From sequence record SRR31156797_9317: 32,823 nt of DNA; one strand, given 5' to 3'. The position numbers were made by a program, and so were the translations under genes. The stretch's first letter is position 1. Each line of letters starts with the position of its first letter. Positions 183 to 29,478 of this stretch are shown in pieces. The notes under the pieces were generated by a model. It was not told the DNA's origin. It worked only from the letters and a program-made list of their open reading frames with translations, and searched no databases.

Positions 183-1247
183 ATGCCACGTAAAACCCGA
201 CTCAAATTCCTCGACAGGTATCTCACCCTCTGGATTTTCATGGCCATGTTTGCAGGGGTGGGTCTGGGCTATTTCTATCCCGGTATTGCAGGATTTTGGG
301 ATATGCTAAAACCTTCGCCTGAAAGCTCCACGAGCATTCCGCTGGCCATTGGCCTGATACTGATGATGTATCCGCCGCTGGCAAAAGTGAAGTACGAAGA
401 ATTACCGGTCGTTTTCCGAAATTTTAAAATACTTGCCTTGTCGCTGGTGCAGAACTGGTTCATTGGCCCGGTGCTGATGTTTTTTCTCGCCATCGCATTT
501 CTTCAGGGTTATCCTGCCTACATGTACGGGCTCATCCTTATCGGGCTGGCACGCTGCATAGCCATGGTGATTGTATGGAACGAGCTGGCCAAAGGCAATA
601 CTGAATATGCCGCCGGGCTGGTGGCTTTTAACAGTATTTTCCAGGTGTTGTTCTTTTCGGTGTATGCCTGGTTTTTTCTTTCGGTGGCCCCCGAATGGTT
701 CGGTATTGCAACCACCGAAGCGGTAGAAAAGATCACCATGGGGCAGATTGCCGAAAGCGTGCTGATCTACCTGGGCATTCCGTTTGCAGCAGGATTCTTA
801 ACCCGCTTTATCCTGATCAGGGTGAAAGACAAGGATTGGTACCACCGGAAATTTATCCCCAAAATTTCACCCATCACGCTCATCGCACTGCTCTTTACTA
901 TCGTCGTAATGTTTTCTTATAAAGGCGAAAAGATCATTGAGTTGCCGATGGATGTGGTGCGGGTGGCTATCCCCCTGATCATCTATTTTGTGGTGATGTT
1001 CCTGATCTCATTTTGGATGGGAAAACGTGTCGGTGCCGATTATTCAAGAACAACAACCATTGCATTTACAGCAGCCTCCAACAACTTCGAGCTGGCCATT
1101 GCCGTAGCCGTGGCTGTGTTCGGCCCCTATTCAGGTGTGGCTTTCGCTGCAGTTATCGGGCCACTGGTAGAAGTGCCGGTGCTGATTGCCCTGGTGAATG
1201 TTGCCTTACGATTTCAGAAAAAGTATTTTAAAACACAAACCAACTAA
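183..1247 (+). CDS. acr3: ACR3-family arsenite efflux transporter
   Basis: [35 protein letters not shown] (conserved Cys), [11 protein letters not shown] and GPLVEVP motifs; about 10 hydrophobic segments. Confidence 0.96.
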
Positions 1248-1259
1248 AATTTTTTAGAT

Positions 1260-1682
1260 ATGAAGAAAAATGAAATGACAGTAATGTTGATTTTGATGCT
1301 GGCCTTTATCCTGCCCGGGTTTTCATCTCTGGCTCAGGAAAACAACACAGTAGAAGCCAAAGTGGATGTTTATTATTTTCACACTACCAAACGCTGCCCA
1401 ACCTGTGAAGCCATCGAAAGGGAGACGAAAAAAACCATACAACGTTCTTTTGCCGATCAATACAAAAATGGCACCCTGAAATTGCATATCCTGAACCTGG
1501 ATGACGAGGATAATAAAGCACTTGTAAACAAATACGAAATTTATGGATCAAGCCTGATCCTGGTTCCGGCTGATGGTGGCGAGGTGGTTAATCTCACCAA
1601 TAAAGCATTTCTGTATGCCCTCGACCAGTCGTTTGCGTTCAGGAAAGAACTCCGTGAAAAACTTAACGAAATATTAAAATAA
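1260..1682 (+). CDS. Exported thioredoxin-fold CxxC protein (ArsF-like family found in ars clusters)
   Basis: Signal peptide ending SLA-Q; YYFHTTKRCPTC motif; 12 bp downstream of acr3. Confidence 0.75.
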   Translation: MKKNEMTVMLILMLAFILPGFSSLAQENNTVEAKVDVYYFHTTKRCPTCEAIERETKKTIQRSFADQYKNGTLKLHILNLDDEDNKALVNKYEIYGSSLILVPADGGEVVNLTNKAFLYALDQSFAFRKELREKLNEILK

Positions 1683-1760
1683 GCCACAGGAAAAGATCTC
1701 GCCGACTATGTACTTACGGGGATAACAATTTTTCCGGACATTCGAAAAATTCAAAAACCA

Positions 1761-3098
1761 GTGGATAACAAAAAAGAAATCAGGATTTTACTTTGGATGG
1801 CTGTGATCTTTGCATTTGCATTTTTCATGCCCTTGCAAAGCGAGCGTTTCAACGAAGCCATCATGGCTATGTTCGACCTCACGAAATGGTATGCACAGGA
1901 ACATGTGATCCTGTGCCTGCTGCCGGCGTTTTTTATTGCCGGTGTAATCTCGGTGTTTGTAAGTCAGGGTGCGGTGATGAAGTACTTCGGAGCCAGGGCC
2001 AAAAAATGGGTTGCCTATACGGTGGCTTCGGTTTCGGGAACCATACTGGCGGTTTGCAGTTGCACCATCCTGCCGTTGTTTTCGAGTATTCATAAGCGTG
2101 GTGCTGGCCTGGGCCCCGCTGTTGCCTTTTTATATTCAGGGCCCGCTATCAACATCCTGGCCATCATTCTCACAGCCCGCATCCTGGGTTTCGAGATGGG
2201 CATGGCAAGAATTATCGGAGCCGTGGTTTTTGCCATCGTAATTGGCTCAGCCATGTCATTCATCTATCGCAAGGAGGAAAAAGCCAAGCGGGAAGAACAG
2301 ATGAATTTCCCCGACATCCCCGAAAAAAGGCCGATATGGAAAACATCATTTCATTTTTTCACCCTGGTATTGATACTGGTATTTGCCAACTGGGGAAAGC
2401 CCGAAAGCAGCGACACGACAAGTACGTGGTACTACATTTGGGCATACAAATGGTATATCACCGGATTTTTTTCCCTGCTGCTCATGTATTCGCTGACCTT
2501 TATTTTAAAAATCAAATGGCACAGGGTGCTGTTGGCTGGCCTGGCAACGGTGGCTTCAGCTTTGCTGGCAAACACATTTATCGAAAGCAACAAACTGGCC
2601 CCGCTTGTTCCGGTACTGACCGGCATCGCCGCTTTAAGCCTTATTACCCTAAAAGATAACGATGCTGACAACCGCGAGTGGACCATTTCATCCTGGGGTT
2701 TTGCAAAGCAGATTATGCCGCTTTTGGCCATTGGTGTTGTTACTGCCGGTTTTCTACTGGGTTCCACCCACGGCGATACTGCCATTGCCGGCATAATTCC
2801 CGGTGAATGGATTGCAGCTTTGGTGGGAAATAATTCGATATTCTCCAACTTTTTTGCATCCATTGTGGGCGCATTCATGTACTTTGCCACCCTCACCGAG
2901 GTGCCCATTTTGCAGGGATTAATAGCTTCGGGCATGGGCAAAGGACCTGCACTGGCACTGCTGCTTGCAGGCCCATCGCTTTCCCTTCCGAACATGCTGG
3001 TGATACGCGGCGTAATGGGAACACAGAAAACACTGGTATATGTGTTGCTGGTGGTAATAATGGCGACCATCTCAGGATTGATTTTTGGGGCAATTTAG
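1761..3098 (+). CDS. ArsP/DUF318-family permease
   Basis: LCLLPAFFIAG, AVCSCTILP, FLYSGPAIN, MYFATLTEVPI and LLLAGPSLSLP motifs; polytopic membrane protein; GTG start after an A-rich leader. Confidence 0.88.
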   Translation: MDNKKEIRILLWMAVIFAFAFFMPLQSERFNEAIMAMFDLTKWYAQEHVILCLLPAFFIAGVISVFVSQGAVMKYFGARAKKWVAYTVASVSGTILAVCSCTILPLFSSIHKRGAGLGPAVAFLYSGPAINILAIILTARILGFEMGMARIIGAVVFAIVIGSAMSFIYRKEEKAKREEQMNFPDIPEKRPIWKTSFHFFTLVLILVFANWGKPESSDTTSTWYYIWAYKWYITGFFSLLLMYSLTFILKIKWHRVLLAGLATVASALLANTFIESNKLAPLVPVLTGIAALSLITLKDNDADNREWTISSWGFAKQIMPLLAIGVVTAGFLLGSTHGDTAIAGIIPGEWIAALVGNNSIFSNFFASIVGAFMYFATLTEVPILQGLIASGMGKGPALALLLAGPSLSLPNMLVIRGVMGTQKTLVYVLLVVIMATISGLIFGAI

Positions 3099-3181
3099 CA
3101 GACGATTTGGTTATGAAACGCATCGGGGATATCAGGAGTACCGATTCAGCCGCTTATGACCATTCGGAAATTCTATATTAC

Positions 3182-3604
3182 ATGAAAGACATATTTGCAG
3201 GTAAAGGAATCAAAAACGGCAAGTTGCTTAGCCTCTCTCCAAAAGAAACGGCGGATGCCTGTGCTGAAGGAGCTATCATTGTGGATGTGCGGGAGGACTA
3301 TCTGAACAGCTACAAAATGTTTGGCGTAACCGAAGTAATTTATTTGCCCATGACCAGTTTCAAAAAGGATTATCGCATTCTGCCTGAAGACCGGTATCTC
3401 ATCATTGCCGATTCATCAGGAATAAAAAGTAAGGAAGCCGCAATATTTTTGATGGAAAGAGGCTACAAAAAAGTGGCCAACCTGGCAGGTGGACTGGTGG
3501 AATGGGAACGTGATAAAATGCCGCTGAACACAGACATTGGTGAACGGCTGACCGGTTCGTGTATGTGCCAGCTCAAACCCAGGGACAGAAAGAAGAAAGA
3601 GTGA
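3182..3604 (+). CDS. Rhodanese-like domain protein, Asp at the catalytic Cys position, C-terminal SCMC motif
   Basis: IVDVRE...ANLAGGLVEW rhodanese signature; loop ADSSGIKS; tail GSCMCQLK. Start uncertain (3107 TTG, 3113 ATG or 3182 ATG). Confidence 0.8.
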   Translation: MKDIFAGKGIKNGKLLSLSPKETADACAEGAIIVDVREDYLNSYKMFGVTEVIYLPMTSFKKDYRILPEDRYLIIADSSGIKSKEAAIFLMERGYKKVANLAGGLVEWERDKMPLNTDIGERLTGSCMCQLKPRDRKKKE

Positions 3605-3623
3605 AAACTTAAACTCAAAAGTT

Positions 3624-4397
3624 ATGAAAATACAATCTTGTGGATTTATTGGCGGGGGCAGGATCACCGGGATTTTCCTCCAGGCCTTCGAAAACAAAAA
3701 AGCATCATGGGATGATGTGGTTGTTTATGATAAGGATGAAGAAACAGCCTCAAAGTTAAAACAGCAATTTCCGAAAATTAACATCGCCAAAACTTCAGCA
3801 GAGGCTGCTCAATGCGATGTGGTTTATATTGCGCTTCATCCACCTGTGATCATCGAAACCCTGGCTGACATAAAAGGCCACATGAAAGAAAATTCGGTGG
3901 TTGTGTCGCTTGCGCCCAAAATCACCATCGAAAAGATGCGTGGGATTTTAGGCATTCCAAATGTCATGCGGCTGATTCCCAATGCGACTTCCAACATCAA
4001 CGAAGGCTATAATCCTATTTGCTTTGCTGATGGTTTCAATTCTTCCAGGAAAATTGAAATCCTTTCCATAATCGACATTCTTGGAAAAGCAGTCGAGACA
4101 GATGAATCAAAGCTTGAGGCCTATGCCATTGTTTCGGCTATGCTCCCGACGTATTTTTGGTTTCAGTGGAAAACACTGGTTGAGCTGGGTATTGACATGG
4201 GCCTGGAAAGCAGCGAAAGTAACCAGACTGTTATGCAAACACTGGAAGCTGCCATAAAGCTGATGTTTTCTTCTGGATTGAGTTATGAAGCTATTACCGA
4301 CCTCATTCCGGTTAAACCAATCGCTGAGCATGAAGATGAGATTAGTCAGATATTGCAAACCAAATTATCAGGGTTGTATCAAAAAATTAAACCTTAA
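3624..4397 (+). CDS. NAD(P)-binding oxidoreductase of the pyrroline-5-carboxylate reductase-like fold
   Basis: GFIGGGRIT Rossmann motif, VVSLAP and RLIPN ProC-like motifs; lacks the ProC SGSGPA and SPGGTT motifs. Confidence 0.75.
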   Translation: MKIQSCGFIGGGRITGIFLQAFENKKASWDDVVVYDKDEETASKLKQQFPKINIAKTSAEAAQCDVVYIALHPPVIIETLADIKGHMKENSVVVSLAPKITIEKMRGILGIPNVMRLIPNATSNINEGYNPICFADGFNSSRKIEILSIIDILGKAVETDESKLEAYAIVSAMLPTYFWFQWKTLVELGIDMGLESSESNQTVMQTLEAAIKLMFSSGLSYEAITDLIPVKPIAEHEDEISQILQTKLSGLYQKIKP

Positions 4398-14511: not shown

Positions 14512-16938
14512 TTATTCATATTTTATGGCATCAACAGGATTACCGAGCCCTGCTTTTACAGTATGGAAACTTATGGTTGCCATACTGATCAACAGTGCGG
14601 CGATACCTGCCAGCACCACGGATGCTACCGATATATTGATGTGGTAAACAAAACTCGTGTCGAGCCAGTTACTCAGCTGCCAAACGGCTACCGGAATAGC
14701 AATGATAAATGCGATGATGATGAGGACAACAAATTCTTTGTACAAAATTCCCAGGATATTGCCAATAGAAGCGCCCATAACTTTTCTTATGCCGATTTCC
14801 TTTGTTTTTTGTTCAGCAATAAACGATGATAATCCAAGCAATCCGAGTAAGGCAATGAAAATAGTGAGCAATGTGGCAATGGTAAAGATCACACCAAGCT
14901 TTTGTTCGCCTTCGTACATACTTCCCCAGGTGTCTTCGAGCATCCGGTAATCGAAAGGCCGTTTCGCACCCAGCTCATTCCACCTATCTTCGACGTATTG
15001 CATGGTTTCGCCAAAATTGTTTGGATTGATCTTTAGCGATAAATAGAACTTATTAAAATCCGCCATGAACAGCATAATCGGTTCAACTTTGTTATGCAAC
15101 GAATTGAAGTGGAAATCTTTTACCACGCCAATAACCTTCAATGTTCGGCCACCATTGCCTTCAAGATCAAAACCCCACCTGATTTTTTTCCCCAGCGGGT
15201 TGTCCTCCCAGCCATATTGCTTCACTGTGGTTTCGTTCACTATCACCGCTTCTTCGGCATCGGTGCCCATGTTCCGGTCAAAATTTCTTCCCTGTAAAAT
15301 CTCAAGCTCGTAGGTATCGATATAGTCATAATCCACAAGTGTGAGGATCATGGCGTCATCAATCATGGCCGTATCTTTTTCCATTTTCACCACTTGTATC
15401 CAGGAGTTATCGCCCGGTATTCCGGTTGAGTTTGCTACTGCCTGGATGTTTGAATTTTTAAGCAGCTCTTTTTTGTAGGTTTCCACTTTGCTACGGAATG
15501 TACTGTCTTGTAGTTCCAAAATCACCATGTGGTCTTTTTTGAAACCCATATCTTTATTCTTGAGGAAATTCAGCTGGTTGGTCACCACAATAGTCCCAAT
15601 GATCATGGCGATGGCGATGGCAAATTGAAATACCACCAGGACTTTTCTGAGTGTACCACCTTTTCGGCCTTTGCCGCGACCGGAACCTTTTAGCACGGTT
15701 ACCGGTTTAAATGAAGATAAATAAAACGCGGGGTAGCTCCCTGACAGCAGTCCAATAATCAGCGTTGTTGTGATAATTGCAATGAGAAATCCGGGGTTGG
15801 TGAAGATTTCGAAATCAATCTCCTTACCCGAGAGGTTGTTAAAATCGGGGAGAAGCAAATATACCAGGCCAACGCCAAGGATCAGGCCAATTATAGCCAG
15901 TAAAACAGATTCTGATAAAAACTGGGTAACCAGTTGTTTTTTGAATGCACCCGCAACTTTCCTGATACCAACTTCTCTGGCCCTTTTGGCCGAACGTGCT
16001 GTAGCCATATTCATATAGTTGATGGCTGCAATGAGCAGGATAAAAAGCGCAACGGCACTGAAAATAAAGATGTATGCCTTGTTTCCTTTCGGGAGGTCTG
16101 CCGAAAGATTGCCTGAAAAATGGGTATCAGTTAGCGGTGTAGACATTAAATCGAAGCTGGCATTAAATGAATCACCAACAGCCTTCATATACTTATCGTA
16201 AAACCCACCGAATTTATCGTGGATGGCCTGTATTTCCGCATTTTCCCTGATCAGCAAAAAAGTGAAAACACCGATGTTCCAAAACCGTCCGGGTTCCATG
16301 CTGTTGAACTCCTCCTCGCCAACGATACTTGCCAGCGTCGTTCCTGAAAGAAGTCCATCAAACCATAAATGCGAATTTTCAGGTACGTCTTCCATAACAC
16401 CGGTAATCTTGTATTGCCTTCCGCTTCCTGACTCAATCAGTTCACCAAGTGGATTTTCATCGCCAAAATATTTTTTGCTGGCGGTTTCGCTTATAACCAT
16501 CGAAAAAGGCTCTATAAGACAGGTGGATGGGTCTCCCAGTGTGAGATTATAGGTGAAAATGTCGAAAAGTGTTGAGTCGACAAAATAGAAATTTTGCTCA
16601 TAAAATTCCTTGTCACCATATTTGAATAGTGAATTACCCACATCATTAAACCTGCAAAATTCCTCAATTTCAGGATATTCCAGTTTTAAAGCCGGACCCA
16701 TGGGTACGGGAACAATGGCAAACTGATCGTGTTTGCCGGAAATGTTAAAATTCGATTCAATCCGGTAAATTCTGTCAGCTTTATCGTGGTACCTGTCGAA
16801 CGAAATTTCACTTCGTACATACATGAAAATGAAAATGAAAGCTGCAAAACCTATGGCCAGACCCAAAATGTTGAGGATGGAATAAAATCTGCTTTTAACG
16901 ATGCCACGTATGGCAATTTTAATGTAATTTCCCAGCAT
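14512..16938 (-). CDS. MacB/FtsX-like ABC transporter permease (tandem duplicated type)
   Basis: NILGLAIG, INYMNMATARS..RAREVGIRKV, KEIGIRKVMGAS, NPVDAIKYE. Confidence 0.93.
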   Translation of the reverse strand: MLGNYIKIAIRGIVKSRFYSILNILGLAIGFAAFIFIFMYVRSEISFDRYHDKADRIYRIESNFNISGKHDQFAIVPVPMGPALKLEYPEIEEFCRFNDVGNSLFKYGDKEFYEQNFYFVDSTLFDIFTYNLTLGDPSTCLIEPFSMVISETASKKYFGDENPLGELIESGSGRQYKITGVMEDVPENSHLWFDGLLSGTTLASIVGEEEFNSMEPGRFWNIGVFTFLLIRENAEIQAIHDKFGGFYDKYMKAVGDSFNASFDLMSTPLTDTHFSGNLSADLPKGNKAYIFIFSAVALFILLIAAINYMNMATARSAKRAREVGIRKVAGAFKKQLVTQFLSESVLLAIIGLILGVGLVYLLLPDFNNLSGKEIDFEIFTNPGFLIAIITTTLIIGLLSGSYPAFYLSSFKPVTVLKGSGRGKGRKGGTLRKVLVVFQFAIAIAMIIGTIVVTNQLNFLKNKDMGFKKDHMVILELQDSTFRSKVETYKKELLKNSNIQAVANSTGIPGDNSWIQVVKMEKDTAMIDDAMILTLVDYDYIDTYELEILQGRNFDRNMGTDAEEAVIVNETTVKQYGWEDNPLGKKIRWGFDLEGNGGRTLKVIGVVKDFHFNSLHNKVEPIMLFMADFNKFYLSLKINPNNFGETMQYVEDRWNELGAKRPFDYRMLEDTWGSMYEGEQKLGVIFTIATLLTIFIALLGLLGLSSFIAEQKTKEIGIRKVMGASIGNILGILYKEFVVLIIIAFIIAIPVAVWQLSNWLDTSFVYHINISVASVVLAGIAALLISMATISFHTVKAGLGNPVDAIKYE

Positions 16939-17081
16939 AACCTATAAGTATTAAATTGGAATGGAAACCATTCAACAAACACGTAAGTGTTTCAGAAGCA
17001 ATCAGGGATGCCAGTTTAGTGTTGTCTGAAAAGCGGCCCTGAATAATCCGACCCGGAGGATGTTCGATTTAAAATATGGAT

Positions 17082-17771
17082 TTACAGTGCAAACTGTTCC
17101 TTTATGTTTTCGGTAACCACCTGGCCATCAAACAGGCGAACTATGCGATGGCTGTATTCCGCATCTCTTTGGGAGTGCGTTACCATTACGATTGTAGTTC
17201 CGTTTTTGTTGAGTTGCTCCAGGAGGTTCATCACTTCTTCACCATGGGCCGAATCGAGATTACCTGTTGGCTCATCCGCAAGAATTAGTTTTGGATTGGC
17301 TACAACTGCACGTGCCACGGCAACCCTTTGTTGCTGGCCACCTGAAAGCTGGAGCGGAAAGTGCTTTTTACGATGAATGATCTGCATTTGCTCAAGGGCA
17401 GCTTCTACCTTGGCTTTACGCTCACTTGCTTTATAACCGAGGTAAATGAGCGGCAACTCCACATTTTCGAACACATTTAGTTCATCAATCAGGTTAAAAT
17501 TCTGAAAAACAAAACCGATATTGTGTTTTCTGAGCGATGCGCGTTGCTTTTCCGAATGGTCGGATACCTCTTTATCCAGGAAAAAATATTCTCCCTCTGT
17601 AGGATTATCAAGCAACCCAAGAATGTTGAGCAATGTTGATTTACCACAACCAGAAGGGCCCATTACGGCAACAAATTCTCCTTCTTTCACTTCAAACGAA
17701 ACTTTGTTTAATGCTGTGGTTTCCACCTCGTCGGTTCTAAAAACCTTTGTTAAATCTACGGTCTTAATCAT
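17082..17771 (-). CDS. ABC transporter ATP-binding protein (MacB/LolD-like)
   Basis: Walker [10 protein letters not shown], signature LSGGQ, Walker [15 protein letters not shown] switch. Confidence 0.96.
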
Positions 17772-17800
17772 ATGTTATTTATTTGGTTGATCTTCTTTTT

Positions 17801-17826
17801 GACGTGTTGCGCCAAAAAAGGTTACA
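17801..17826 (-). promoter_or_regulatory. Putative ECF-sigma promoter upstream of the ABC ATPase
   Basis: Minus strand TGTAAC-N16-CGTC, about 30 bp upstream of the ATG at 17771. Confidence 0.5.
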
Positions 17827-17831
17827 TGTAT

Positions 17832-18089
17832 TTATCGGTTAAAAATCTCCATAAATAGCCGAAGATCTTCAATTTCATTATCCTCCAAATCTTCGATCAG
17901 TTTGCCCTGTATCGCACCCTCAATAGCCAGCAGCATTTCAAAACAAGCACTTGAGTCGTCTGTTTTAATTTTCACAAAAGTGTGCCTGCTTCCCTTCTCT
18001 CTGAGCATTTCAGGAGTAGAAATCCCCGCGTTAATCAGCTTGGATTCCAACTCGCTGTCGATGTTTGGTAAATGAATCAGTTTGCTCAT
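17832..18089 (-). CDS. TfoX/Sxy C-terminal-domain protein
   Basis: LPNI...E.KL..AGI.TPE.L...GS and L.AIEGAIQG match the TfoX_C pattern; 85 aa. Confidence 0.8.
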   Translation of the reverse strand: MSKLIHLPNIDSELESKLINAGISTPEMLREKGSRHTFVKIKTDDSSACFEMLLAIEGAIQGKLIEDLEDNEIEDLRLFMEIFNR

Positions 18090-18127: not shown

Positions 18128-18243
18128 TCATGAACTATGCCAAAGTTTAATACATTTTGATTATCAATGATATACAAAGTGTATAAACAATTCTTCATTT
18201 TAAAGTGTACGATTTTCAGGTAGGTTTTGTTCGGTTGTGGACA
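18128..18243 (-). promoter_or_regulatory. Sigma54-type -24/-12 promoter with tandem upstream activator boxes (copy 1)
   Basis: Minus TTGGCATAGTTCATGA (18143-18128); boxes TGTACGATTTTCAGGT (18206-18221) and TGTTCGGTTGTGGACA (18228-18243). Confidence 0.7.
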
Positions 18244-18450
18244 AATGCTGAAGGCATAAATTCAACTTGATGATTACTCAATCTTAATTATGGGGCGAGA
18301 TGCTGTTTAAAGGCATAATTTTACCAGGGTGAATCGTTATCAGGAACCGCTTATTCATTTCCCAGAGGAAAGGTCTTTTTTGCTAATCACAATTGTAATC
18401 TATATTGCATCTCCAATCACTGCATTATGAGAATTAGCTAGAAATTTGTC

Positions 18451-18458
18451 TATATTTG
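18451..18458 (+). promoter_or_regulatory. Bacteroidota housekeeping promoter -7 element for the signalling cassette
   Basis: TATATTTG; overlaps the ORF-track TTG start, implying a downstream true start. Confidence 0.6.
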
Positions 18459-18494
18459 CACATGGCAGTGCATTTTCCTCTTCCACTTAAAAAC

Positions 18495-20357
18495 ATGAAT
18501 GCTGAAGGCAACCGGGCAACAATAAAAATGATGGGATTAAACCCCCTCACCCTATCCTTTAATGGTGTTGATGAAAAAGTTTTTCTGAAGAAATATTTTC
18601 GGGATTCTTTATTTCAATTCAGGGTAGCGTTTATTTCAGTTACCTTATTGTATGGAGTTTTTGCGCTGTTGGACAAACCAAACGTAAACCAGTATGCCGA
18701 AATATTTCATTACATCCGGTTTGCATTTGTAATCCCTGTGCTCATAACAGTTTTTTTGCTTTCCTATACCAAATTTTTCCAACGTATCTGGCAATCTTTG
18801 CTATTTGTGTCCTTCTTGGTTGCGGGCTCAGGAATTGCAGCAATGACCGCAATGGTACCTGAAAATTACGCGTACTATGCAGGTATGATGCTGATATTTT
18901 CGGCAGGGTACTTTTTTATTAAACTTCGGTTTTTCCTGGCAACCATTGCAGGTTGGATAACACTTGTCATTTTTAATGCAGGTGCTTTATTTAATGGGAC
19001 CGATGCATTAACACTGTGGACAACCAATGCATTTTATGTTGCTGCAAATGTTATCGGGATGATGGCTGCCTACTATATCGAATTCTACGCACGGCGTGAT
19101 TTTTTTCAGGAGGTACAATTGAAAAAGGAGCGGCAAAAAGTGTTGGATGCAAACCGAAACCTTGAACAAAAAGTTGATCTACGAACAAAAGAACTTCAAA
19201 AAAGTAATGATGAATTGCGTGTTGCCAAGGAAGAAGCGGAAAAGTCAGATAAATTGAAATCGGCCTTCCTGGCCAATATGAGTCACGAAATCAGGACACC
19301 GCTAAATGGCGTGCTTGGCTTTGCGCAATTGATAAAAGATGATGATGACCTGGAGGAAATCAGGGAAAATGCTGAGGTGATCATCGACAATAGCGCACAC
19401 CTGCTGGATTTGATTAATGATATCGTTGATATCTCAAAAATCGAGGCTGGTGTTATGGAGTTGAAGCAGGATGAGTTTTCGCTTAATGAAATGATCAACG
19501 ACCTGGCCGCATTTTTCAGGCGCGATGCCAGCGTTCAGGCAAAGGGCCTGGAAATAAAAACCCGGTTTGACCTGCCTGATAAAACATCAATGATCAAGGT
19601 GGATAAAACAAGGTTAAGGCAGGTGCTGGTAAACCTCACCAAAAATGCATGTAAATACACCAAAGAAGGCTATGTTGAGATTGGATATAATTTGCATGAA
19701 GATAACCTGGTTTTTTATGTGAAAGACACCGGTATTGGCCTTGATGATGAGCAGATCAGGTATATTTTTAACAGATTTATGCAGGTTGCCACAACGGTTT
19801 CGTCCAACGAGGAAGGGGTTGGCCTGGGCCTGACTATTTCGAAAGCCATTGTAAGTCAGCTTGGAGGAGATATCTGGGTTGAGTCGGTACCGGGACAGGG
19901 AGCAATTTTTTATTTCAATATACCTGATAAACCGGGTGAAAATGTAATTTTACAAACAGAATATCAAATGCATTCAAATATGGACTACGATTGGAAGGAT
20001 AAAATAATATTGGTGGCCGAAGATGTCCCAACAAATTTCTTGCTGGTAAAAAAATCGTTACGCAAAACCAACGTGCAGCTTTTGTGGGCCAAAAATGGCA
20101 AAGAAACAGTAGAAATGGTAAAAGAACACGACAATATTGACATGGTGTTGATGGACATCAGAATGCCAATAATAAATGGGTTGGACGCAACAAAAGAGAT
20201 CAAAAAAATCAGGCCAAATCTGATTGTAATTGCACAGACTGCCTATGCAATGGATGGTGACAGAGAAAACAGCCTCGATGCGGGTTGCGATGATTACATT
20301 TCAAAACCGATCAACCTGAAGGAATTTATCGAATTGATAGCAAAATACATGAACTAA
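18495..20357 (+). CDS. Membrane-bound hybrid sensor histidine kinase (about 6 TM + HisKA + HATPase + receiver); PhcS-like candidate
   Basis: TM region containing YYAGMMLIF; H-box FLANMSHEIRTPLNG; N-box LVNLTKNACKY; DTGIG and GVGLGL; receiver VAED..LMDIRMP..SKP. Start moved from 18456 to the in-frame ATG at 18495. Confidence 0.92.
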   Translation: MNAEGNRATIKMMGLNPLTLSFNGVDEKVFLKKYFRDSLFQFRVAFISVTLLYGVFALLDKPNVNQYAEIFHYIRFAFVIPVLITVFLLSYTKFFQRIWQSLLFVSFLVAGSGIAAMTAMVPENYAYYAGMMLIFSAGYFFIKLRFFLATIAGWITLVIFNAGALFNGTDALTLWTTNAFYVAANVIGMMAAYYIEFYARRDFFQEVQLKKERQKVLDANRNLEQKVDLRTKELQKSNDELRVAKEEAEKSDKLKSAFLANMSHEIRTPLNGVLGFAQLIKDDDDLEEIRENAEVIIDNSAHLLDLINDIVDISKIEAGVMELKQDEFSLNEMINDLAAFFRRDASVQAKGLEIKTRFDLPDKTSMIKVDKTRLRQVLVNLTKNACKYTKEGYVEIGYNLHEDNLVFYVKDTGIGLDDEQIRYIFNRFMQVATTVSSNEEGVGLGLTISKAIVSQLGGDIWVESVPGQGAIFYFNIPDKPGENVILQTEYQMHSNMDYDWKDKIILVAEDVPTNFLLVKKSLRKTNVQLLWAKNGKETVEMVKEHDNIDMVLMDIRMPIINGLDATKEIKKIRPNLIVIAQTAYAMDGDRENSLDAGCDDYISKPINLKEFIELIAKYMN

Positions 20358-20375
20358 TTTTTAAAATCCATACCC

Positions 20376-21434
20376 ATGTCACAAGGGCCAAAACATAATA
20401 TCTCCCTGCTGTTTGTTGAAGATAATGAAACCATTAGATTTTTATATAACCGGCTCCTTTCCAGTCGGGTGAAGGAATTTTATATCGGTGAAAATGGTCA
20501 GGAGGGGCTTGAGCTTTATAAAAAACACAAACCTGATCTTATCATAACTGACATTAGTATGCCGATCATGGATGGCCTTGAAATGATTGGCCACATCAAA
20601 GAAATAGACCCGGACGTGAAAGTGATCGTAATGTCGGCGTACAGTATTAAGGAATATTTTCTCGAAGCCATCAACCACGGGGTTCACGGTTACCTCATTA
20701 AACCGGTTGAAGCCAAAAAATTATTCAGCCTGATTGATGAACTGGCAAGCCACATTTTACTTACCAAGGAACTTGCCGAAAAAGAAGAAAAACGAAAAGT
20801 GGCCGAGGAAAATCTCAAGCGATCACTCGAAGAAAAAGAGATTCTGCTTAAAGAGGTACACCATCGTGTTAAAAATAACATGCAGATCATTTCCAGCATA
20901 TTAAAAATGCAGGAGCGACTTATCGATGATGAGCGATTAAAGGTGGTGCTCGAAGAAAGCCAGAACAGGATCAGGTCGATGGCGCTGATACACGAAAACC
21001 TTTATCGCAACGAGAACCTGGCAAACATCATGTTTTCGAACTATGTGAAGAGTCTCGCAGGAAACCTGGCCCGATCGTTTTCCGAACAACAGGGCAACGT
21101 TGCTTTTGACTACGATATCGACGATGTTTACCTTCCCCTCGACATTGGAATACCGTGTGGTTTAATCATCAACGAATTAATTTCCAATTCTTTCAAGTAT
21201 GCTTTTAAAGGAAAAGATAACGGCAAAATCACTATTAATCTGAAGCGCCTGGATGAGCAAAGTTTCAGGCTTGAAGTATGCGATAATGGATTAGGTTTAC
21301 CCGACGGAATCAATATCGAAAAATCGGGATCTCTGGGAATGAAAATCGTTTCCAAACTTGTGATGCAAATCGACGGGACCCTGAAATACGAATACAGCAA
21401 TGGTGCAAAATTTATCATCGAATTCAATATTTAA
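20376..21434 (+). CDS. Cytoplasmic receiver + HisKA_2 histidine kinase
   Basis: Receiver [27 protein letters not shown]-box; [20 protein letters not shown]. Confidence 0.92.
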
Positions 21435-21445
21435 TATCGGAATAT

Positions 21446-22201
21446 ATGTCAGAATATAAAGTACTAATTGTTGAGGATGAATTGCTGGTTTCAGCTGATA
21501 TCGAGGAGAGCCTGGAGTTATTGGGCTATACTGTGGTTGGAGCCGTGGCAACAGGAAAGGATGCCATTGAAAGCGTGGAAAAAAACCTGCCGGATGTGAT
21601 TCTTATGGATATCATGCTCAAAGGAGATATGACCGGAATAGAAGCGGCAAACATCATCAGGAAAAAGCATGATGTTCCCATTATTTACCTCACTGCAAAT
21701 GCTGATCTTGGTACCATAGAAAAGGCTAAAGTTTCGCTGCCATATGGTTACATTATCAAACCATTTACTGAAAAAGATTTACAGACCAACATCGAGATTG
21801 CCAGGTTTAAGTTTAGCAACGATATCCAGGCGAAAATGGAAAGCGACCAGTACAACCGGTTTTTCAATGATGTGAATAGTGGTAAAACAAGCATGTTCGC
21901 CGAGTCAGGATCAGGACTTGAAAAAATAAAAATCGGAGATATTTATTATATTGATTCAAATGAAGATGGTTCGTTGATTGTGATGTCGGATGAAGACATT
22001 GCCGTTTCAAAATCGGTTGATGAACTCGAAAAAGAATTACCTGATGATCAGTTTATCAAGGTTAACCAAAATCAAATTGTGAATGTCAGAAAAGTATTTC
22101 TCTCAACATTGCCCGAAATAATTATTGCAGATAAAATGAACGTCATCATTGTTGATGAAGACAGAATGGAGCTGGTAAAAGCCAAATTAGAATCCAAATA
22201 A
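21446..22201 (+). CDS. Response regulator with a degenerate LytTR-like output domain
   Basis: Receiver IVEDE..LMDIML..LTA..IKPF; C-terminal IYYIDS...LEKELPDDQFIKVNQNQIVN. Confidence 0.85.
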   Translation: MSEYKVLIVEDELLVSADIEESLELLGYTVVGAVATGKDAIESVEKNLPDVILMDIMLKGDMTGIEAANIIRKKHDVPIIYLTANADLGTIEKAKVSLPYGYIIKPFTEKDLQTNIEIARFKFSNDIQAKMESDQYNRFFNDVNSGKTSMFAESGSGLEKIKIGDIYYIDSNEDGSLIVMSDEDIAVSKSVDELEKELPDDQFIKVNQNQIVNVRKVFLSTLPEIIIADKMNVIIVDEDRMELVKAKLESK

Positions 22202-22240
22202 CTGCAAATAATTATCAAAAAATTCCTACCGGGGGCAGCT

Positions 22241-23122
22241 ATGAATACAACACTAACTGAATTTCGACTTAAAGAAAAAATTATTCAACTTCTACGAAAC
22301 TATGGGCCAGAGCCGGATGAGTACCAATCAATTCTTCAGTTTTTTGATACAATAAAATCCGAGGAAATTAAGGACTTCAGGGATATGATGAAACCCATCC
22401 TGAATCCCAATACCATTATCGGCTTTTCATTTACCAAACCTTTTGGCTATAACGGTGACTTTTTCATTATTGAAAAAATTTACCAGCACTATGTAAACCC
22501 GGATGAAAAGTACCGGAAATGGGACGAATTTTTCCATACATTTCCTGCGGCTATTGCCGTGGTAAACCGAAAAGCACTTGCCAGAGAAGTAATCACCAAT
22601 TTAAATGAAAATGCCCGGGGTAACAGGCAGGATGTCATGATTCTGGGTAGCGGACCAGTGACTGAAGTTTATGAATATTTTCAGCAAACAGATGAAAATT
22701 TCCTTGATTTCGACCTGCTGGACCTGGATAAGCGGTCGATCGAATATGCCAAACAGAAGCACCGAAACAACATAAAATACCTGAATTTTCATAATCAAAA
22801 TGTTATCAGGTTTACCCCCGAAAAAAAATACAGCCTGATTTGGAGTGCCGGATTGTTCGATTATTTCAAGGATAAGCATTTTGTTTTCATGATTAAAAAA
22901 TACTATGAGTTTGTGCAGGATGGGGGCGAAATGATCATTGGCAATTTCAATACAATGAATCCTTCAAGAAAGATAATGGAAGTGCTTGGCGACTGGTTTT
23001 TGTATCATCGATCCGAGGATGAACTGATCGGTTTTGCTTTGCAGGCGGGGATTCCTTACGAAAATGTAGAAGTTATAAAGGAGCCACTTGGGATTAACCT
23101 TTTCCTCAGGGTGAAAAAGTAG
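22241..23122 (+). CDS. Class I SAM-dependent methyltransferase, PhcB-like
   Basis: KPFGYNGDF, ILGSGP (SAM motif I), LLDLD, WSAGLFDY, GGEMIIGNF, WFLYHRS and EPLGINLF motifs, recognised from PhcB-type methyltransferases. Confidence 0.8.
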   Translation: MNTTLTEFRLKEKIIQLLRNYGPEPDEYQSILQFFDTIKSEEIKDFRDMMKPILNPNTIIGFSFTKPFGYNGDFFIIEKIYQHYVNPDEKYRKWDEFFHTFPAAIAVVNRKALAREVITNLNENARGNRQDVMILGSGPVTEVYEYFQQTDENFLDFDLLDLDKRSIEYAKQKHRNNIKYLNFHNQNVIRFTPEKKYSLIWSAGLFDYFKDKHFVFMIKKYYEFVQDGGEMIIGNFNTMNPSRKIMEVLGDWFLYHRSEDELIGFALQAGIPYENVEVIKEPLGINLFLRVKK

Positions 23123-23222: not shown

Positions 23223-25646
23223 TTACTCATACTTGAGCACATTCACCGGATTGGCACGTGCAGCTTTCATTGATTGTACAATTACGGTAAGCAACCCAAT
23301 GGTTATGGCCAAAATCAATGAGAAGGTAAAATAGTACCAACTTAGTGCAATCCGGTTGGCGAAGCTATCCAGCCAGTTGGTCATTAAAATGTAGCTGAGT
23401 GGAATAGCCAGAACACCGGCAATGATGATCAGGCTTAAAAACTCCTTTACAAATTTTCTTGTGATCTGATTTTCGGTGCTTCCCAGCACTTTTCTGATCC
23501 CGATTTCCTTGGTACGCTGTTCAGTGCTGTACGACGCCAGCCCCAGCAATCCCATCGAAGAAATGATTACGATAAGTATGGCAAAGTAGCCAAAAATGCT
23601 TAGCAATCTGCGCTCACGGTCATATTGCATTTCAAAATTTGTATCCAGGAAATTGTAGTTTAAAGGGTGTTTTTGGTTATAGGAATTCCATTTTGATTCC
23701 ACAAAAGCAATGGTTTCTTTGAGCGATTCGGGTTGAATTTTAATTGCTATCCTGTTGAGCAGATGAGGTGTAAAGATCATGACCAGGGGTTCAACAGGAT
23801 TTTGAAGTGAAGCATAATGGAAATCATTAATCACCCCAACAATCCGGCCATTTACCCCAAGTCCACAATACATGCGATGTCCCACAGGTTCTTCTAACCC
23901 AAGAAATTTAACTGCAGCTTCGTTCACAACAAACGCAGATGTATCGTCGTGGGCATAATCTTCGGAAAAGAATCTTCCCTGTTTAATTTCTAAATCGAGG
24001 ATGCTGGTGAAGTTCTCATCAACGGCAAAAATATTCATGGTTTTATTGATGAAATTACCATCATCATCTACAAAAAACAACAACCTGCCATGTTTAAATC
24101 CCGGAAGGCTGTTGGTTGCCGAAACCATTTCGATACCCGAAAAATTTCTAAGTTCCTTCACAAAACTTTCTTTTTGTTGTACCATCGAAGTATCAGAAGG
24201 CAGGTTGACCACCATGATGTTATTTTTTTCGAAACCCAGGTCGTGTGTGCGCATAAACTGTAACTGATCAAAAACCACCCAGGTACTGATGAGCATGGCC
24301 ACTGAAATGAGAAACTGTAAAATCACAAGGCCTTTTCTGAGCCCTGCAGCGCTGAATGCCATATTTCCTGACCGGATCTTCATACTGCCGCCTTTTAGCA
24401 CATTCACAGGTTTAAAACCCGAAAGCACCAACGCAGGAAAACTTCCGGAAAACAAACCAACTAACACTACAAGGAGCAATACCTGTATCCAGGTGAAAAA
24501 CAAGCTCATTCCCGCAGTTTGATGAAAAAGTGATAGACTCTTTCCGGTAATTTGATTAAAAACCGGTGTGAATAATTCTATAAGGATCAATGAAATAACC
24601 AGAGAAAAAAGACTGAAGATTATGGCCTCACCCAAAAACTGGATGATGAGCTGCCCCTTATTAGCGCCTGATACTTTTCGGATTCCTATTTCACGGGCAC
24701 GACGGATCGATTTTGCAGTTGCCAGGTTCATATAATTTATACTGGCTATGAGCAGAATAAAAATTCCAATAGCACCAAAAATATAGATGTATTTTGAGCT
24801 GGTGTTCGACGACATGTCGTACTGCCGTGAGGTGTTGAAATGTATTCCAGTTAGGGGCTCTATCTGGAATGAAGCACTTGCTGACAATTCCAGTTCATTA
24901 ATCCATGGGTCGATCGTTTCAGCAGTCCACTGGTCAATACTTCGTTTCAGGTCGGTCATTTTGGTGCCAGGCTTAGCAAGGAGGTAAGTGTAACTTATCA
25001 TTCTAAACCAGTCGGCGTTGAGCGTTTCAACAAAACTCCTGGGAAACGATCCGGAAGAGATGAGGATGTTGGGCACAAAATGCGAAACGAAGTCGTCATT
25101 TTTAAAAACACCATTAATTTTAAAGGTATTGGAAGTGGTTTTAAATGTTTTTCCGATAATGTCTGTCGTTCCAAATAACCGGATGGCTTCTGTTTCTGAG
25201 ACAACCGCTGTAAATGGTTCATTCAGTACGATTTCCCGTTGGCCCGAAATAAAATTATAATCGAATATTCTGTAAAAATCCGGGTCAGTGGCATAAATCT
25301 CCTCTATGGGAAAAATGTGTTCGTCAACCTCAATGTTTTGAGTACCAACCAGACTGAACCTCACAACGGTTTCCACACCAGGGATGGCTTCCTTCAGGGC
25401 AGGGCCAACCGGGAAGGATGTTAGCGCAAAGGGATCATCACTTCCTGACATGTTCAGGCTTTCTGTAATGCGGTAAGTGTTTTCGGCATTAATCCAGCTT
25501 CGGTCGTGGGCCAGCTCACTTTTAATATACATGAATATAATAATTGCTGATGCAAGGCCTACCGCAAAACCAAAAATTGTGATGAGCGAATATGCCAGAT
25601 TCCTTCGCAGGTTCCTGATGGTAGTTATTATATAGTTTTTTATCAT
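23223..25646 (-). CDS. MacB/FtsX-like ABC transporter permease (second paralogue)
   Basis: INYMNLATAKS..RAREIGIRKV, RTKEIGIRKVLGS, NPVNVLKYE. Confidence 0.93.
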   Translation of the reverse strand: MIKNYIITTIRNLRRNLAYSLITIFGFAVGLASAIIIFMYIKSELAHDRSWINAENTYRITESLNMSGSDDPFALTSFPVGPALKEAIPGVETVVRFSLVGTQNIEVDEHIFPIEEIYATDPDFYRIFDYNFISGQREIVLNEPFTAVVSETEAIRLFGTTDIIGKTFKTTSNTFKINGVFKNDDFVSHFVPNILISSGSFPRSFVETLNADWFRMISYTYLLAKPGTKMTDLKRSIDQWTAETIDPWINELELSASASFQIEPLTGIHFNTSRQYDMSSNTSSKYIYIFGAIGIFILLIASINYMNLATAKSIRRAREIGIRKVSGANKGQLIIQFLGEAIIFSLFSLVISLILIELFTPVFNQITGKSLSLFHQTAGMSLFFTWIQVLLLVVLVGLFSGSFPALVLSGFKPVNVLKGGSMKIRSGNMAFSAAGLRKGLVILQFLISVAMLISTWVVFDQLQFMRTHDLGFEKNNIMVVNLPSDTSMVQQKESFVKELRNFSGIEMVSATNSLPGFKHGRLLFFVDDDGNFINKTMNIFAVDENFTSILDLEIKQGRFFSEDYAHDDTSAFVVNEAAVKFLGLEEPVGHRMYCGLGVNGRIVGVINDFHYASLQNPVEPLVMIFTPHLLNRIAIKIQPESLKETIAFVESKWNSYNQKHPLNYNFLDTNFEMQYDRERRLLSIFGYFAILIVIISSMGLLGLASYSTEQRTKEIGIRKVLGSTENQITRKFVKEFLSLIIIAGVLAIPLSYILMTNWLDSFANRIALSWYYFTFSLILAITIGLLTVIVQSMKAARANPVNVLKYE

Positions 25647-28123: not shown

Positions 28124-28558
28124 TTAACTATGATCGGCTTCACCGAACTTTTCAACCAGAAGTTTGTCTTTCACCTTCATTCCTATGGCAAGAAAAAGCG
28201 TGGCTATTATCCCGAGTGTGATGGAGGCACCCGATTGTAACTTGAAAATGATGCCCAGATTGAACAGGATATAAGCCAGGTATTGGGGGTGTTTTACAAA
28301 TCTGTAAATTCCGGATGTTACCCGCCGGGTGGTGTCCATATAATTGTTTCCGGGTTGCACTCCGCCTCGTTTTTTAAGCGCAACAAGTGCACTTACCCAA
28401 AGAAATACTGAAACCAGCCATAGAAAAATACTCAGGTAAATAGCCTGAGGAAAAATGCGAACAGAATTTGAGAAAACCATGAAAAAAATATGGATTCCTG
28501 TGAGTAACATTCCAACATTCAGATAACTGAATAAAGTATATTTATGATTTGGTTTCAT
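28124..28558 (-). CDS. Isoprenylcysteine carboxyl methyltransferase/PEMT-family membrane protein, possibly C-terminally truncated
   Basis: VTSGIYRFVKHPQY motif; ATG overlaps the upstream stop (TAATG at 28560-28556); ends at KFGEADHS. Confidence 0.7.
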   Translation of the reverse strand: MKPNHKYTLFSYLNVGMLLTGIHIFFMVFSNSVRIFPQAIYLSIFLWLVSVFLWVSALVALKKRGGVQPGNNYMDTTRRVTSGIYRFVKHPQYLAYILFNLGIIFKLQSGASITLGIIATLFLAIGMKVKDKLLVEKFGEADHS

Positions 28559-29478
28559 TAATACCTGATTTCGGTTTTTTTGTGCTTCTGCCATGCAGGC
28601 AATACCAATTGGTCGTCGTGCCAGGCATTTTTCAATAGAAACAAAGCAATCACCAATCCAAAGATAACAGTAATTGGCGAGGCCTCAATGCCAAATTCAC
28701 CGCCGGTTATCCATGCTGGACCTGATAGTTCAGCTGTAATTAATCCAGGGAAATCTATCCCTGAAGCCGGTAGTCCAAACACCGATGCCTGCATGAAATT
28801 CCATGTGAAATGGATGCCTAAAATCATCCAGATGCGACGTGTAAATATAAATGCCATGCTGAGCAATACGCCTGCTTCGATGGCTATTGCTATGGCTGAC
28901 CACAAGTTGGCATGATCGTTGAGCAGGTGTGCTGCTCCAAAAAACATTGCGCTGATGAAGATGGAAATCCAACTTCCCAAATATTCTTCAAGTAGTTTAA
29001 ATACAATCAACCTGAAAATCACTTCCTCGAAAAAAGCACCATAGCCAAAAACAATAAAGCCATGAAATAATTCTTCCGCAGGGTTGAACGATTGGATATT
29101 ATAAAATCCGGCTAGTGCCATGATCAATATTACAACTCCGATGAGTGTGCTGCCAATCAGAACTCCTCCTGTTAGCTCGGTAATTACCGAAGATCGCGAA
29201 AATTCATAAACCGGTCGTTGCTCAACATTCCGGATCAGCAGCATATATGTGGCTGCTATAAGCAGGGTAAGTATAAGGTGTACAAGCAATTCACCCGGAA
29301 TAGATTGATCATTGAAGTATGCTGAAATGTTAGGAAGAAGAAATTGGCCGGCAGCAAATAATAAGAGTGAGATTACAACAAGATACCCAAAAAGTCTGGC
29401 AAACGGGTTGAGCATCCAGCCAGGGATATTCCGGCAATCTTCCTTGTTGGGAATAAGTTTTGAAACATTAACAATCAC
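28558..29478 (-). CDS. CPBP (CAAX/Abi, Rce1-like) intramembrane metalloprotease
   Basis: EEVIFR, FGAAH and HFTWN motifs, plus GGEFGIEAS. Confidence 0.9.
   Translation of the reverse strand: MIVNVSKLIPNKEDCRNIPGWMLNPFARLFGYLVVISLLLFAAGQFLLPNISAYFNDQSIPGELLVHLILTLLIAATYMLLIRNVEQRPVYEFSRSSVITELTGGVLIGSTLIGVVILIMALAGFYNIQSFNPAEELFHGFIVFGYGAFFEEVIFRLIVFKLLEEYLGSWISIFISAMFFGAAHLLNDHANLWSAIAIAIEAGVLLSMAFIFTRRIWMILGIHFTWNFMQASVFGLPASGIDFPGLITAELSGPAWITGGEFGIEASPITVIFGLVIALFLLKNAWHDDQLVLPAWQKHKKTEIRY

Follow-up and report, generated by a model that had tools for sequence, protein, structure and literature searches.

The subject of this work is a four-gene cassette (positions 18495-23122) in a 32,823-nucleotide stretch of DNA from the sequence record SRR31156797_9317; the whole stretch is hereinafter referred to as the window. 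The cassette combines an S-adenosylmethionine (SAM)-dependent methyltransferase (MT) of the family that contains PhcB with a hybrid histidine kinase whose membrane sensor domain is homologous to that of PhcS-type kinases, and the genes for the enzyme and the sensor are adjacent in numerous loci from other Bacteroidota. We estimate at roughly one in two the probability that the cassette is a signaling module built around these two co-inherited parts. The preliminary description of this DNA, made from the sequence alone, had recognized four tightly spaced, co-oriented genes, namely a membrane hybrid kinase, a receiver-kinase, a response regulator and a SAM methyltransferase. The layout is borne out by the coordinates of the open reading frames (ORFs), all on the plus strand and separated by gaps of 18, 11 and 39 bp (the first ORF starts at 18495 or, alternatively, at 18456), and the assignments by Pfam matches and prediction of transmembrane (TM) helices. 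The features of the cassette are:

18495-20357, plus strand: hybrid sensor histidine kinase (gene 1), with a MASE8-like six-TM domain, a coiled coil, HisKA, HATPase_c and receiver (REC) domains (from Pfam, hydropathy and translation)
18495-19199, plus strand: predicted membrane sensor domain of the gene 1 kinase (amino acids 1-235), homologous to the PhcS-type N-terminal domain according to hhalign and hidden Markov model (HMM) comparisons; MASE8-like
20376-21434, plus strand: soluble REC-HisKA_2-HATPase_c protein, a receiver-controlled kinase (gene 2; from Pfam)
21446-22201, plus strand: response regulator with REC and LytTR DNA-binding domains (gene 3; from Pfam)
22241-23122, plus strand: 293-aa class I SAM-dependent MT of the PhcB-containing family (gene 4), with a helical N-terminal subdomain that includes KPxGYxGD, and a Rossmann core

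This arrangement is far from chance given that it recurs in 49 of the 80 species loci described below.

The methyltransferase and its family

In Pfam, the MT yields only sub-threshold matches to class I methyltransferases (Methyltransf_25/31/12/PK, 20-23 bits). It has no match in NCBIfam, which holds no model of PhcB or PhcS and gives no informative match for either type of sensor; a sequence profile search of the PDB retrieved nothing beyond generic Rossmann-core matches (at most 26 bits), and a homolog of the MT in the ESM Atlas gave only generic methyltransferase clusters. A word-indexed search with the MT detected 1143 relatives at E<=1e-3; the 120 matches listed are 61-87% identical to the query, and six of these 120 were named by the Joint Genome Institute (JGI) 'extracellular factor (EF) 3-hydroxypalmitic acid methyl ester biosynthesis protein'. 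When a profile of 22 MT relatives (A1) was compared with 1.84 billion cluster representatives, 4673 of these matched at E<=1e-3, 2780 at E<=1e-10 and 444 at E<=1e-30. The motifs KPxGYxGD, SAGLFDY, IGNF and EPxGIN that the preliminary description had reported are indeed found in the translation, as TKPFGYNGD (residues 65-73), SAGLFDY (202-208), IGNF (233-236) and EPLGIN (281-286); all four are invariant across the 22 relatives, and no fewer than 85% of 90 diverse members of the family share their core residues. The residues that are invariant in the family are retained in the window MT (K66, P67, G69, Y70, G72, D73, R110, G138, G204, D207, Y208, N235, W252 and R257), and its match to the profile of the PhcB-containing family is full-length.

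The PhcB-, PhcS- and PhcR-type proteins used for comparison come from a Paraburkholderia graminis plasmid operon, from named Cupriavidus, Paraburkholderia and Massilia proteins and from 80 metagenome loci, and stand in for the Ralstonia proteins themselves. The P. graminis operon, which was identified by a tblastn search of plasmids, has the phcBSRQ layout and encodes a 468-aa MT, a 445-aa kinase and receiver proteins of 134 and 344 aa. The window MT is 23% identical to the 280 C-terminal residues of this 468-aa protein (BLASTP E 8e-24, residues 26-288 versus 178-457), and the motifs FTKPxGYxGD, AGLFDY, NPxR..ME and G(I/V)N(L/V)F line up between the two. This type of protein, with 463-468 aa, is frequent among named Cupriavidus, Paraburkholderia, Massilia, Pseudoduganella and Janthinobacterium, and its size matches the length of 464-468 aa given for PhcB in PMC8578825. 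Against the A1 profile, PhcB-type proteins reach 84-101 bits, with E values of 1e-18 to 6e-24 at the scale of the library.

The preliminary description had presented the MT as the counterpart of PhcB. Membership in the same family stands, orthology does not. Judging by sequence comparison, the MT is a member of the PhcB-containing family that belongs to a subfamily of its own and is not a PhcB ortholog, given that it lacks the N-terminal domain of PhcB, lies apart from the PhcB clade in the phylogenetic tree and has a profile against which an MT domain of a polyketide synthase (PKS) scores higher than PhcB-type proteins do. Specifically, the window MT consists of 293 aa, compared to 464-468 aa in PhcB, and nothing in the window corresponds to the ~175 N-terminal residues of PhcB (best tblastn E 4.7). 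In a FastTree tree of 90 family members, from which the row of a Pantoea MT was dropped for gaps, the Bacteroidota MTs form one clade among representatives that include fusions with ketoacyl-ACP synthase III (KAS III), acyl-CoA dehydrogenase (ACAD), PilZ and AraC. Thus, the HMM search and phylogeny that had been suggested as a check on PhcB identity went against it.

The domain fusions in the family point to acyl chemistry. Among the longer A1-profile matches, we identified fusions to KAS III (2), to ACAD with or without a phosphopantetheine-binding (acyl carrier protein, ACP) domain (2), to PilZ, to an AraC-type helix-turn-helix (HTH) domain and to HTH_3. The MT-family domain is joined to KAS III (FabH-like) or to ACAD with or without ACP in the representatives P0244, P0189/P0274, P0262 and P0198, and forms the C-terminal end of a type I PKS encoded by an IncFII plasmid of Enterobacter ludwigii. 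A Deinococcus family member is encoded in an operon after a fatty-acid desaturase; the other contexts are mixed, with a HAMP kinase and a receiver in Pseudanabaena, an EAL protein on Rhizobium etli p42e and nothing telling in Pantoea. Given that no further enzyme gene is conserved with the MT across the loci and that the family includes fusions to KAS III, ACAD, ACP and PKS, the MT would be expected to act on an acyl-derived metabolite, and we see an even chance that its product is a hydrophobic methylated acyl compound sensed by the adjacent kinase. One family representative with a score of 249 bits to the A1 profile (P0150) lies on a 98-kb contig of a metagenome-assembled genome (MAG) that carries the NCBI label Promethearchaeota (Asgard).

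The sensor kinase, the relay and their linkage to the methyltransferase

In the gene 1 product, Pfam detects HisKA, HATPase_c and Response_reg after an N-terminus of ~230 residues, and both the kinase H-box (SHEIRTPLN) and the receiver aspartate (LMDIRMP) are readable in the translation. The ~230 N-terminal residues have no Pfam match even at E 10; according to a hydropathy scan, they contain about six TM helices connected by loops of no more than 14 aa. Comparison of the aligned N-termini of 73 Bacteroidota kinases with the single Paraburkholderia PhcS-like N-terminus gave an hhalign probability of 92%, against 0.2% for the reversed sequence, at most 2.1% for 60 shuffles, at most 9.6% for 60 block shuffles and at most 1.8% for four other membrane stretches of the window. 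We then fetched the 80 metagenome loci with PhcB-type genes, nearly all of which, where there is enough flanking sequence, have the order phcB-phcS-phcR-phcQ. Against 71 PhcS-type N-termini, the sensor profile aligned over 178 columns with a probability of 99.0% (E 5.8e-18), compared to 1.5-2% for a different multi-TM kinase sensor. The HMM of the PhcS N-terminus matches 71 of the 73 Bacteroidota kinases at E<1e-5 (the window kinase at 8.7e-10), and the reverse HMM, made from the Bacteroidota sensors, matches 67 of the 71 PhcS-type N-termini; the PhcS set here consists of PhcS-like proteins of phcBSRQ-like loci from Paraburkholderia and metagenomes, not of Ralstonia PhcS. Profile-profile and reciprocal HMM comparison agree in assigning a PhcS-type multi-helix sensor to the window kinase.

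A precomputed match to MASE8 (PF20968) is present in 103 of the 120 kinase homologs among the matches listed, and the Paraburkholderia PhcS-like N-terminus matches MASE8 at E 0.0012. As far as such matches can tell, the window sensor, with no Pfam match of its own, and the PhcS-type sensors are membrane sensors of the MASE8 kind. No ligand of MASE8 was found in the literature, where one preprint passage does no more than name the domain. The proposal that the kinase is the counterpart of PhcS is supported for the membrane domain; the kinase of the window differs in being a hybrid with a C-terminal receiver. Hybrid PhcS occurs just in distant PhcB-type loci: in eight metagenome loci (L149, L151, L153, L156, L158, L159, L163 and L166) with PhcB-type genes 43-48% identical to the Cupriavidus PhcB-type gene, the PhcS-like kinase is a hybrid of 870-1130 aa that is followed by two receiver proteins of ~390 aa, and its architecture is closer to that of the window kinase.

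The relay differs from that of Phc. Gene 2 (Response_reg, HisKA_2 and HATPase_c in Pfam) and gene 3 (Response_reg and LytTR) are both present in all 49 loci with the gene order of the window. The gene 3 receiver is most similar to PhyR/PRK13435-type receivers, at a level below the cut-off. Receivers of this type are typical partners of HisKA_2/HWE kinases, so phosphorylation of gene 3 by gene 2 would fit. According to PMC8578825 and PMC10653808, PhcR is a soluble protein of 368-374 aa that combines a receiver with a kinase, PhcQ is receiver-only with an uncharacterized C-terminus, and neither has a DNA-binding domain. Gene 2 shares the architecture of PhcR, but the similarity to a PhcR-like protein from a metagenome phc locus is at the level of domains only (BLASTP, 18% identity, E 2e-11), and the latter protein has HisKA in place of HisKA_2. 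Gene 3 differs from PhcQ in combining REC with the DNA-binding LytTR domain, and the only match of a PhcQ-like protein in the window is to a receiver domain. Of the PhcBSRQ parts list proposed in the preliminary description, the family of the MT, the PhcS-type sensor and the domain architecture of gene 2 find support, but not orthology of the MT with PhcB, the kinase subfamily of gene 2 or a PhcQ-like gene 3. The preliminary description was right that the gene order differs from that of phcBSRQ: it is HK-RECHK-RR-MT (HK, histidine kinase; RECHK, receiver-kinase; RR, response regulator) in the window versus synthase-sensor-relay. The two systems nevertheless share tight operon linkage and a soluble REC and kinase protein, and some relatives of the window (type C below) have the order MT-HK-REC. 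The cassette does not fit peptide quorum sensing of the Agr/Com type either: the kinases are HisKA/HisKA_2 rather than HPK10, clustering of the loci revealed no conserved small ORF or processing gene among the cassette neighbors, and the LytTR output is the only common feature.

The linkage of the enzyme and the sensor was analyzed by scanning one genome per GTDB species, which yielded at least 572 confirmed MT relatives, of which the best 80 loci (44-83% identity) were kept. All 80 are labeled as Bacteroidota (one as 'uncultured bacterium') and include Lentimicrobiaceae, Prolixibacteraceae/Draconibacterium/Maribellus, Rikenellaceae and other Bacteroidales. The loci nearest to the window are from Lentimicrobiaceae/Bacteroidales MAGs, with an MT up to 83% identical and the full cassette syntenic, which supports the Bacteroidota origin assumed in the preliminary description. 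In each of the 72 assessable loci, the MT gene adjoins the gene for a kinase with an alignment that covers the sensor domain, so that the synteny survey proposed as a check came out in favor of a conserved link, albeit in three gene orders:

Type A (49 loci): HK-RECHK-LytTR-MT, the order of the window; the receiver of the kinase is a separate ORF in 24 loci and fused in 25
Type B (8 loci): HK-MT, a PAS-containing hybrid kinase of ~725 aa directly followed by the MT
Type C (15 loci): MT-HK-REC, the MT followed by a kinase of ~660 aa and, in 13 of the 15, by a receiver of ~125 aa
Outside the count (8 loci): seven are truncated by the edge of a contig and match type A over the part available; the eighth (L079) has 94 nt upstream of the MT

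The MT of L079 is followed by a TonB-dependent receptor and an aldehyde dehydrogenase; with so little upstream sequence, this locus is not usable as a case of an MT without a kinase. Clustering of the neighbors showed that only the MT and the kinase are common to types A, B and C. In five of five genomes, one sensor and one MT of this family are encoded side by side (one of these genomes has an extra 28-bit match to a generic MT). Among 251 genomes taken evenly from the order, the MT was detected in 14 and the sensor in 28, including all 14 MT-positive ones (Fisher p 1.3e-15, a value that ignores relatedness); in 12 of the 14, the two genes are within about 4 kb of each other, and in one further genome they are split between two short contigs. 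In the genome G424, the MT and its likely partner kinase are located inside separate contigs of 45 kb and 76 kb, that is, unlinked and yet both kept. The MT tree and the sensor tree both recover groups B and C, and the patristic distances in the two trees correlate (r 0.75). In one genome, beside the kinase-linked pair, a second MT gene is followed by one for a MASE8-like sensor domain fused to a SpoIIE/PP2C phosphatase (L188, G352:C2, 6635-9042); given this adjacency, the link of the MT is to the sensor domain and not to kinases as such. The module is nearly universal in one family related to Lentimicrobiaceae and also occurs in Prolixibacteraceae, for example in Draconibacterium. Of the 23 genomes in the GTDB family to which one close relative belongs, 19 carry a single copy of the MT.

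We also examined an even sample of 301 genomes from the phylum, with thresholds of E<=1e-10 for an MT relative and E<=1e-5 for the sensor. Besides the center genome, ten genomes of this sample have an MT relative (at most 37-44% identity), and in eight of these ten an adjacent gene codes for a kinase of ~700-830 aa; of the remaining two, one encodes a fusion of a cyclic nucleotide (cNMP)-binding domain with the MT and no kinase, and the other MT is on a 5-kb contig. The four kinases of this distant MT subfamily that were checked have the architecture HisKA-HATPase-2xREC, and their multi-helix N-terminus is not detectably related to that of the window kinase or of PhcS (hhalign 1.5-2%, no HMM matches). 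This repeated pairing of MTs with membrane sensors in eight of the ten genomes was counted in favor of an enzyme-sensor relationship. The loci of this second Bacteroidota subfamily (L172-L178 and L180, in G211, G195, G271, G059, G035, G026, G291 and G107) always have the MT next to a two-receiver kinase, with an MT identity of 37-44% in seven loci and 33% in L180, where the MT has internal stops; in L175, L178 and L180, an ABC ATPase and two FtsX permeases are encoded upstream on the same strand.

A possible synthase-receptor circuit and its alternatives

In the signaling module that we favor, the MT would methylate an acyl- or fatty-acid-derived metabolite from primary lipid metabolism and yield a more hydrophobic product that partitions into the membrane, where it would be read by the sensor domain of the kinase. 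The hybrid kinase would pass phosphate to the receiver of the REC-HisKA_2 kinase, which would transfer it to the REC-LytTR regulator and so change transcription. We infer this order of phosphotransfer, as well as the role of the MT product as a ligand that leaves the cell. Because the enzyme and the sensor would be co-transcribed, the circuit would act like the autoinducer synthase-receptor pairs of Phc, Cqs and Lqs. In the alpha-hydroxyketone systems CqsA/CqsS of Vibrio and LqsA/LqsS of Legionella, the gene for an enzyme that draws on acyl metabolism adjoins that for a multi-helix membrane kinase, which senses the lipophilic product; the likeness is functional and implies no sequence relationship, the synthase being dependent on pyridoxal phosphate in those systems and a methyltransferase here. 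The Lqs components are named in PMC10653808.

Several observations weigh against this reading. On the side of the enzyme, the window MT is no closer to PhcB than to further branches of its family: the A1 profile gives the C-terminal MT domain of the E. ludwigii type I PKS 115.8 bits, more than the PhcB-type proteins, and a profile of PhcB-type proteins (A2) scores the window MT at 77.2 bits, the PKS domain at 77.1 and the Pseudanabaena MT at 100; in the tree, the PhcB clade is on the other side from the window MT, together with Pseudanabaena, Deinococcus, Rhizobium and PKS sequences. On the side of the sensor, the domain is promiscuous: it is present in 14 of the 237 MT-negative genomes of the order sample, one of which encodes a kinase whose sensor domain is 54% identical and which has no MT gene within 14 kb, and in the phylum sample, where an MT relative was found in 11 genomes and the sensor in 6, the two overlap only in the center genome. 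Of the five sensors that the phylum sample has outside the center genome, four are indeed without an MT; they belong to a PAS kinase, a protein of the kinase-REC-AraC type, a SpoIIE protein and a kinase of 759 aa. The sampled genomes are MAGs with completeness not given, so these absences are soft. Finally, co-transcription of an enzyme with a membrane-sensing kinase fits a circuit of lipid homeostasis as well.

In such a circuit, comparable to DesK-Des, the sensor would read the state of the membrane or an endogenous lipid and the MT would modify a lipid or its precursor, without any signal between cells. In the DesK-DesR-Des system of Bacillus subtilis, a kinase with a sensor that consists of membrane helices only is encoded next to the gene for a lipid-modifying enzyme; the likeness is one of arrangement, the enzyme of that system being a membrane desaturase and its regulator of the NarL type. 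A sensor almost without extramembrane loops, its occurrence in many genomes that lack the MT, as expected of a general membrane sensor, the family member encoded behind a desaturase and the fusions indicative of lipid metabolism would all be compatible with homeostasis. However, the MT is soluble and akin to PhcB and to PKS tailoring domains rather than to bulk-lipid enzymes of the cyclopropane fatty acid (CFA) synthase type, no DNA-binding regulator adjoins the pair in types B and C, and the characterized homologous pair, PhcB/PhcS, is a signal synthase with its receptor, as stated in PMC7694676. On balance, we consider lipid homeostasis to be on the unlikely side. Another role for the pair would be defense against a hydrophobic acid from outside (free fatty acids, for instance, or a foreign signal), which the kinase would detect, the MT esterify and an efflux system remove. 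This would account for the ABC ATPase and MacB/FtsX permeases that adjoin the cassette in 7 to 9 of the 49 type-A loci, namely the window and those most closely related to it, for the HlyD, RND and OEP genes near the cassette in the window and for the upstream ABC/FtsX genes in three loci of the distant MT subfamily. It appears quite improbable given that conservation of the pump genes with the cassette is lacking in the majority of type-A loci and in types B and C, and that the conserved operator-like element described below follows the pump operon rather than the cassette.

A special case of the signaling module is strict orthology with Phc, where the MT would make the methyl ester of 3-hydroxypalmitic or 3-hydroxymyristic acid (3-OH-PAME or 3-OH-MAME) and the system would work as in Ralstonia, in which the LysR regulator PhcA mediates the output. 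The homology of the MT and the sensor to PhcB-type and PhcS-type proteins and the PhcB-type name assigned by JGI to a few of the listed homologs are in line with this possibility, as is the abundance of 3-hydroxy fatty acids in the lipids of Bacteroidota. Nevertheless, with the PhcB N-terminal domain missing from the window, an MT that is not sister to PhcB, a relay that differs in HisKA_2 and LytTR, and a different gene order, strict orthology is very doubtful. We regard as highly improbable a CheR-like role, in which the MT would methylate a relay protein for adaptation of the kinase or receiver: some MT relatives show weak matches to the CheR SAM-binding domain (E about 1e-4) and one plasmid relative is annotated 'chemotaxis protein CheR', but these matches cover just the common Rossmann core, neither the CheR N-terminal domain nor a target resembling methyl-accepting chemotaxis proteins was found, and the fusions to KAS III, ACAD, ACP and PKS speak in favor of small acyl compounds as substrates.

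Bacteroidota dominate in guts, sediments and digesters and, to our knowledge, are without a well-defined dedicated autoinducer synthase-receptor system. If the signaling module is real, the cassette could be a system for a self-made signal of a kind not yet described in these bacteria, the orphan MASE8 sensor domain would gain a candidate class of ligands, and a very large uncharacterized MT family (the 2780 cluster representatives at E<=1e-10) would be tied to acyl-derived signaling chemistry. As a tentative generalization, to which we give somewhat less than even odds, the PhcB-family MT and the MASE8-type sensor would form an old synthase-receptor module that spans phyla; its Bacteroidales version would be the first dedicated autoinducer system of Bacteroidota based on a lipid ester, MASE8 would thereby receive its first ligand class, and the MT-less sensors that other Bacteroidales have in kinases and in PP2C and AraC fusions would be eavesdroppers on this signal. 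The existence of cultured carriers (Draconibacterium and Maribellus) and the involvement of a single 293-aa enzyme make the proposal cheaply testable. PMC10653808 restricts the phc cluster to Betaproteobacteria, in a survey that covered Pseudomonadota only. We found no report of a Phc-like system in Bacteroidota in the literature, with the qualification that the supplementary tables of the Phc papers, which were outside the search, may hold a wider distribution. The resemblance to PhcB itself is not hidden, automatic annotation giving some of the proteins the PhcB name; what appears to be undescribed is that the pairing with a PhcS-type sensor is conserved, that the relay is rewired, and how the module is distributed.

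Surroundings of the cassette in the window

The chromosomal neighborhood of the cassette includes genes for SecA, an RND/HlyD/OEP pump, two MacB/FtsX permeases, an ABC ATPase and a TfoX_C protein; the GC content of the cassette is not distinct from that of the rest of the window. For gene 1, the ATG at 18495 is a likelier start than the TTG at 18456 because a TAtaTTTG box at 18452-18459, which we take to be a Bacteroidota -7 element, overlaps the TTG. A scan for sigma-70 promoters detected 11 sites compared to a mean of 17.6 in shuffled sequences, that is, no excess.

The MacB/FtsX permeases are paralogs of 807 and 808 aa that flank the cassette on both sides (14512-18089, minus strand, and 23223-25646, minus strand), and the genes for the ABC ATPase and the 85-aa TfoX_C protein are upstream of the cassette, together with this bracket. 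The same bracket is found in locus L003, whereas in L002 a PMT_2-like protein follows the MT instead. The divergent intergenic region contains an operator-like element (18205-18243) that consists of a half-site, GTGTACG, at 18205-18211 and a palindrome, TGTTCGGTTGTGGACA, at 18228-18243. The latter was considered as a site of autoregulation by the LytTR protein of the cassette and rejected: it is present in 7 of 50 kinase upstream regions, only opposite the divergent TfoX_C-ABC-MacB operon, to which it probably belongs. An exact 13-nt direct repeat, AATGCTGAAGGCA, occurs at 18244-18256 and 18498-18510, with the second copy just past the kinase ATG and the first within a stretch that is absent from six aligned relatives.

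Two further gene groups in the window deserve mention. At 28124-29478 (minus strand), an ICMT/PEMT-like membrane methyltransferase adjoins a homolog of Rce1-like CAAX proteases. At 183-4397 (plus strand), genes for an SBF/ACR3-like transporter, an ArsP-type permease, a rhodanese and a P5CR-like oxidoreductase occur in a run that looks like an arsenic- or sulfur-related cluster.

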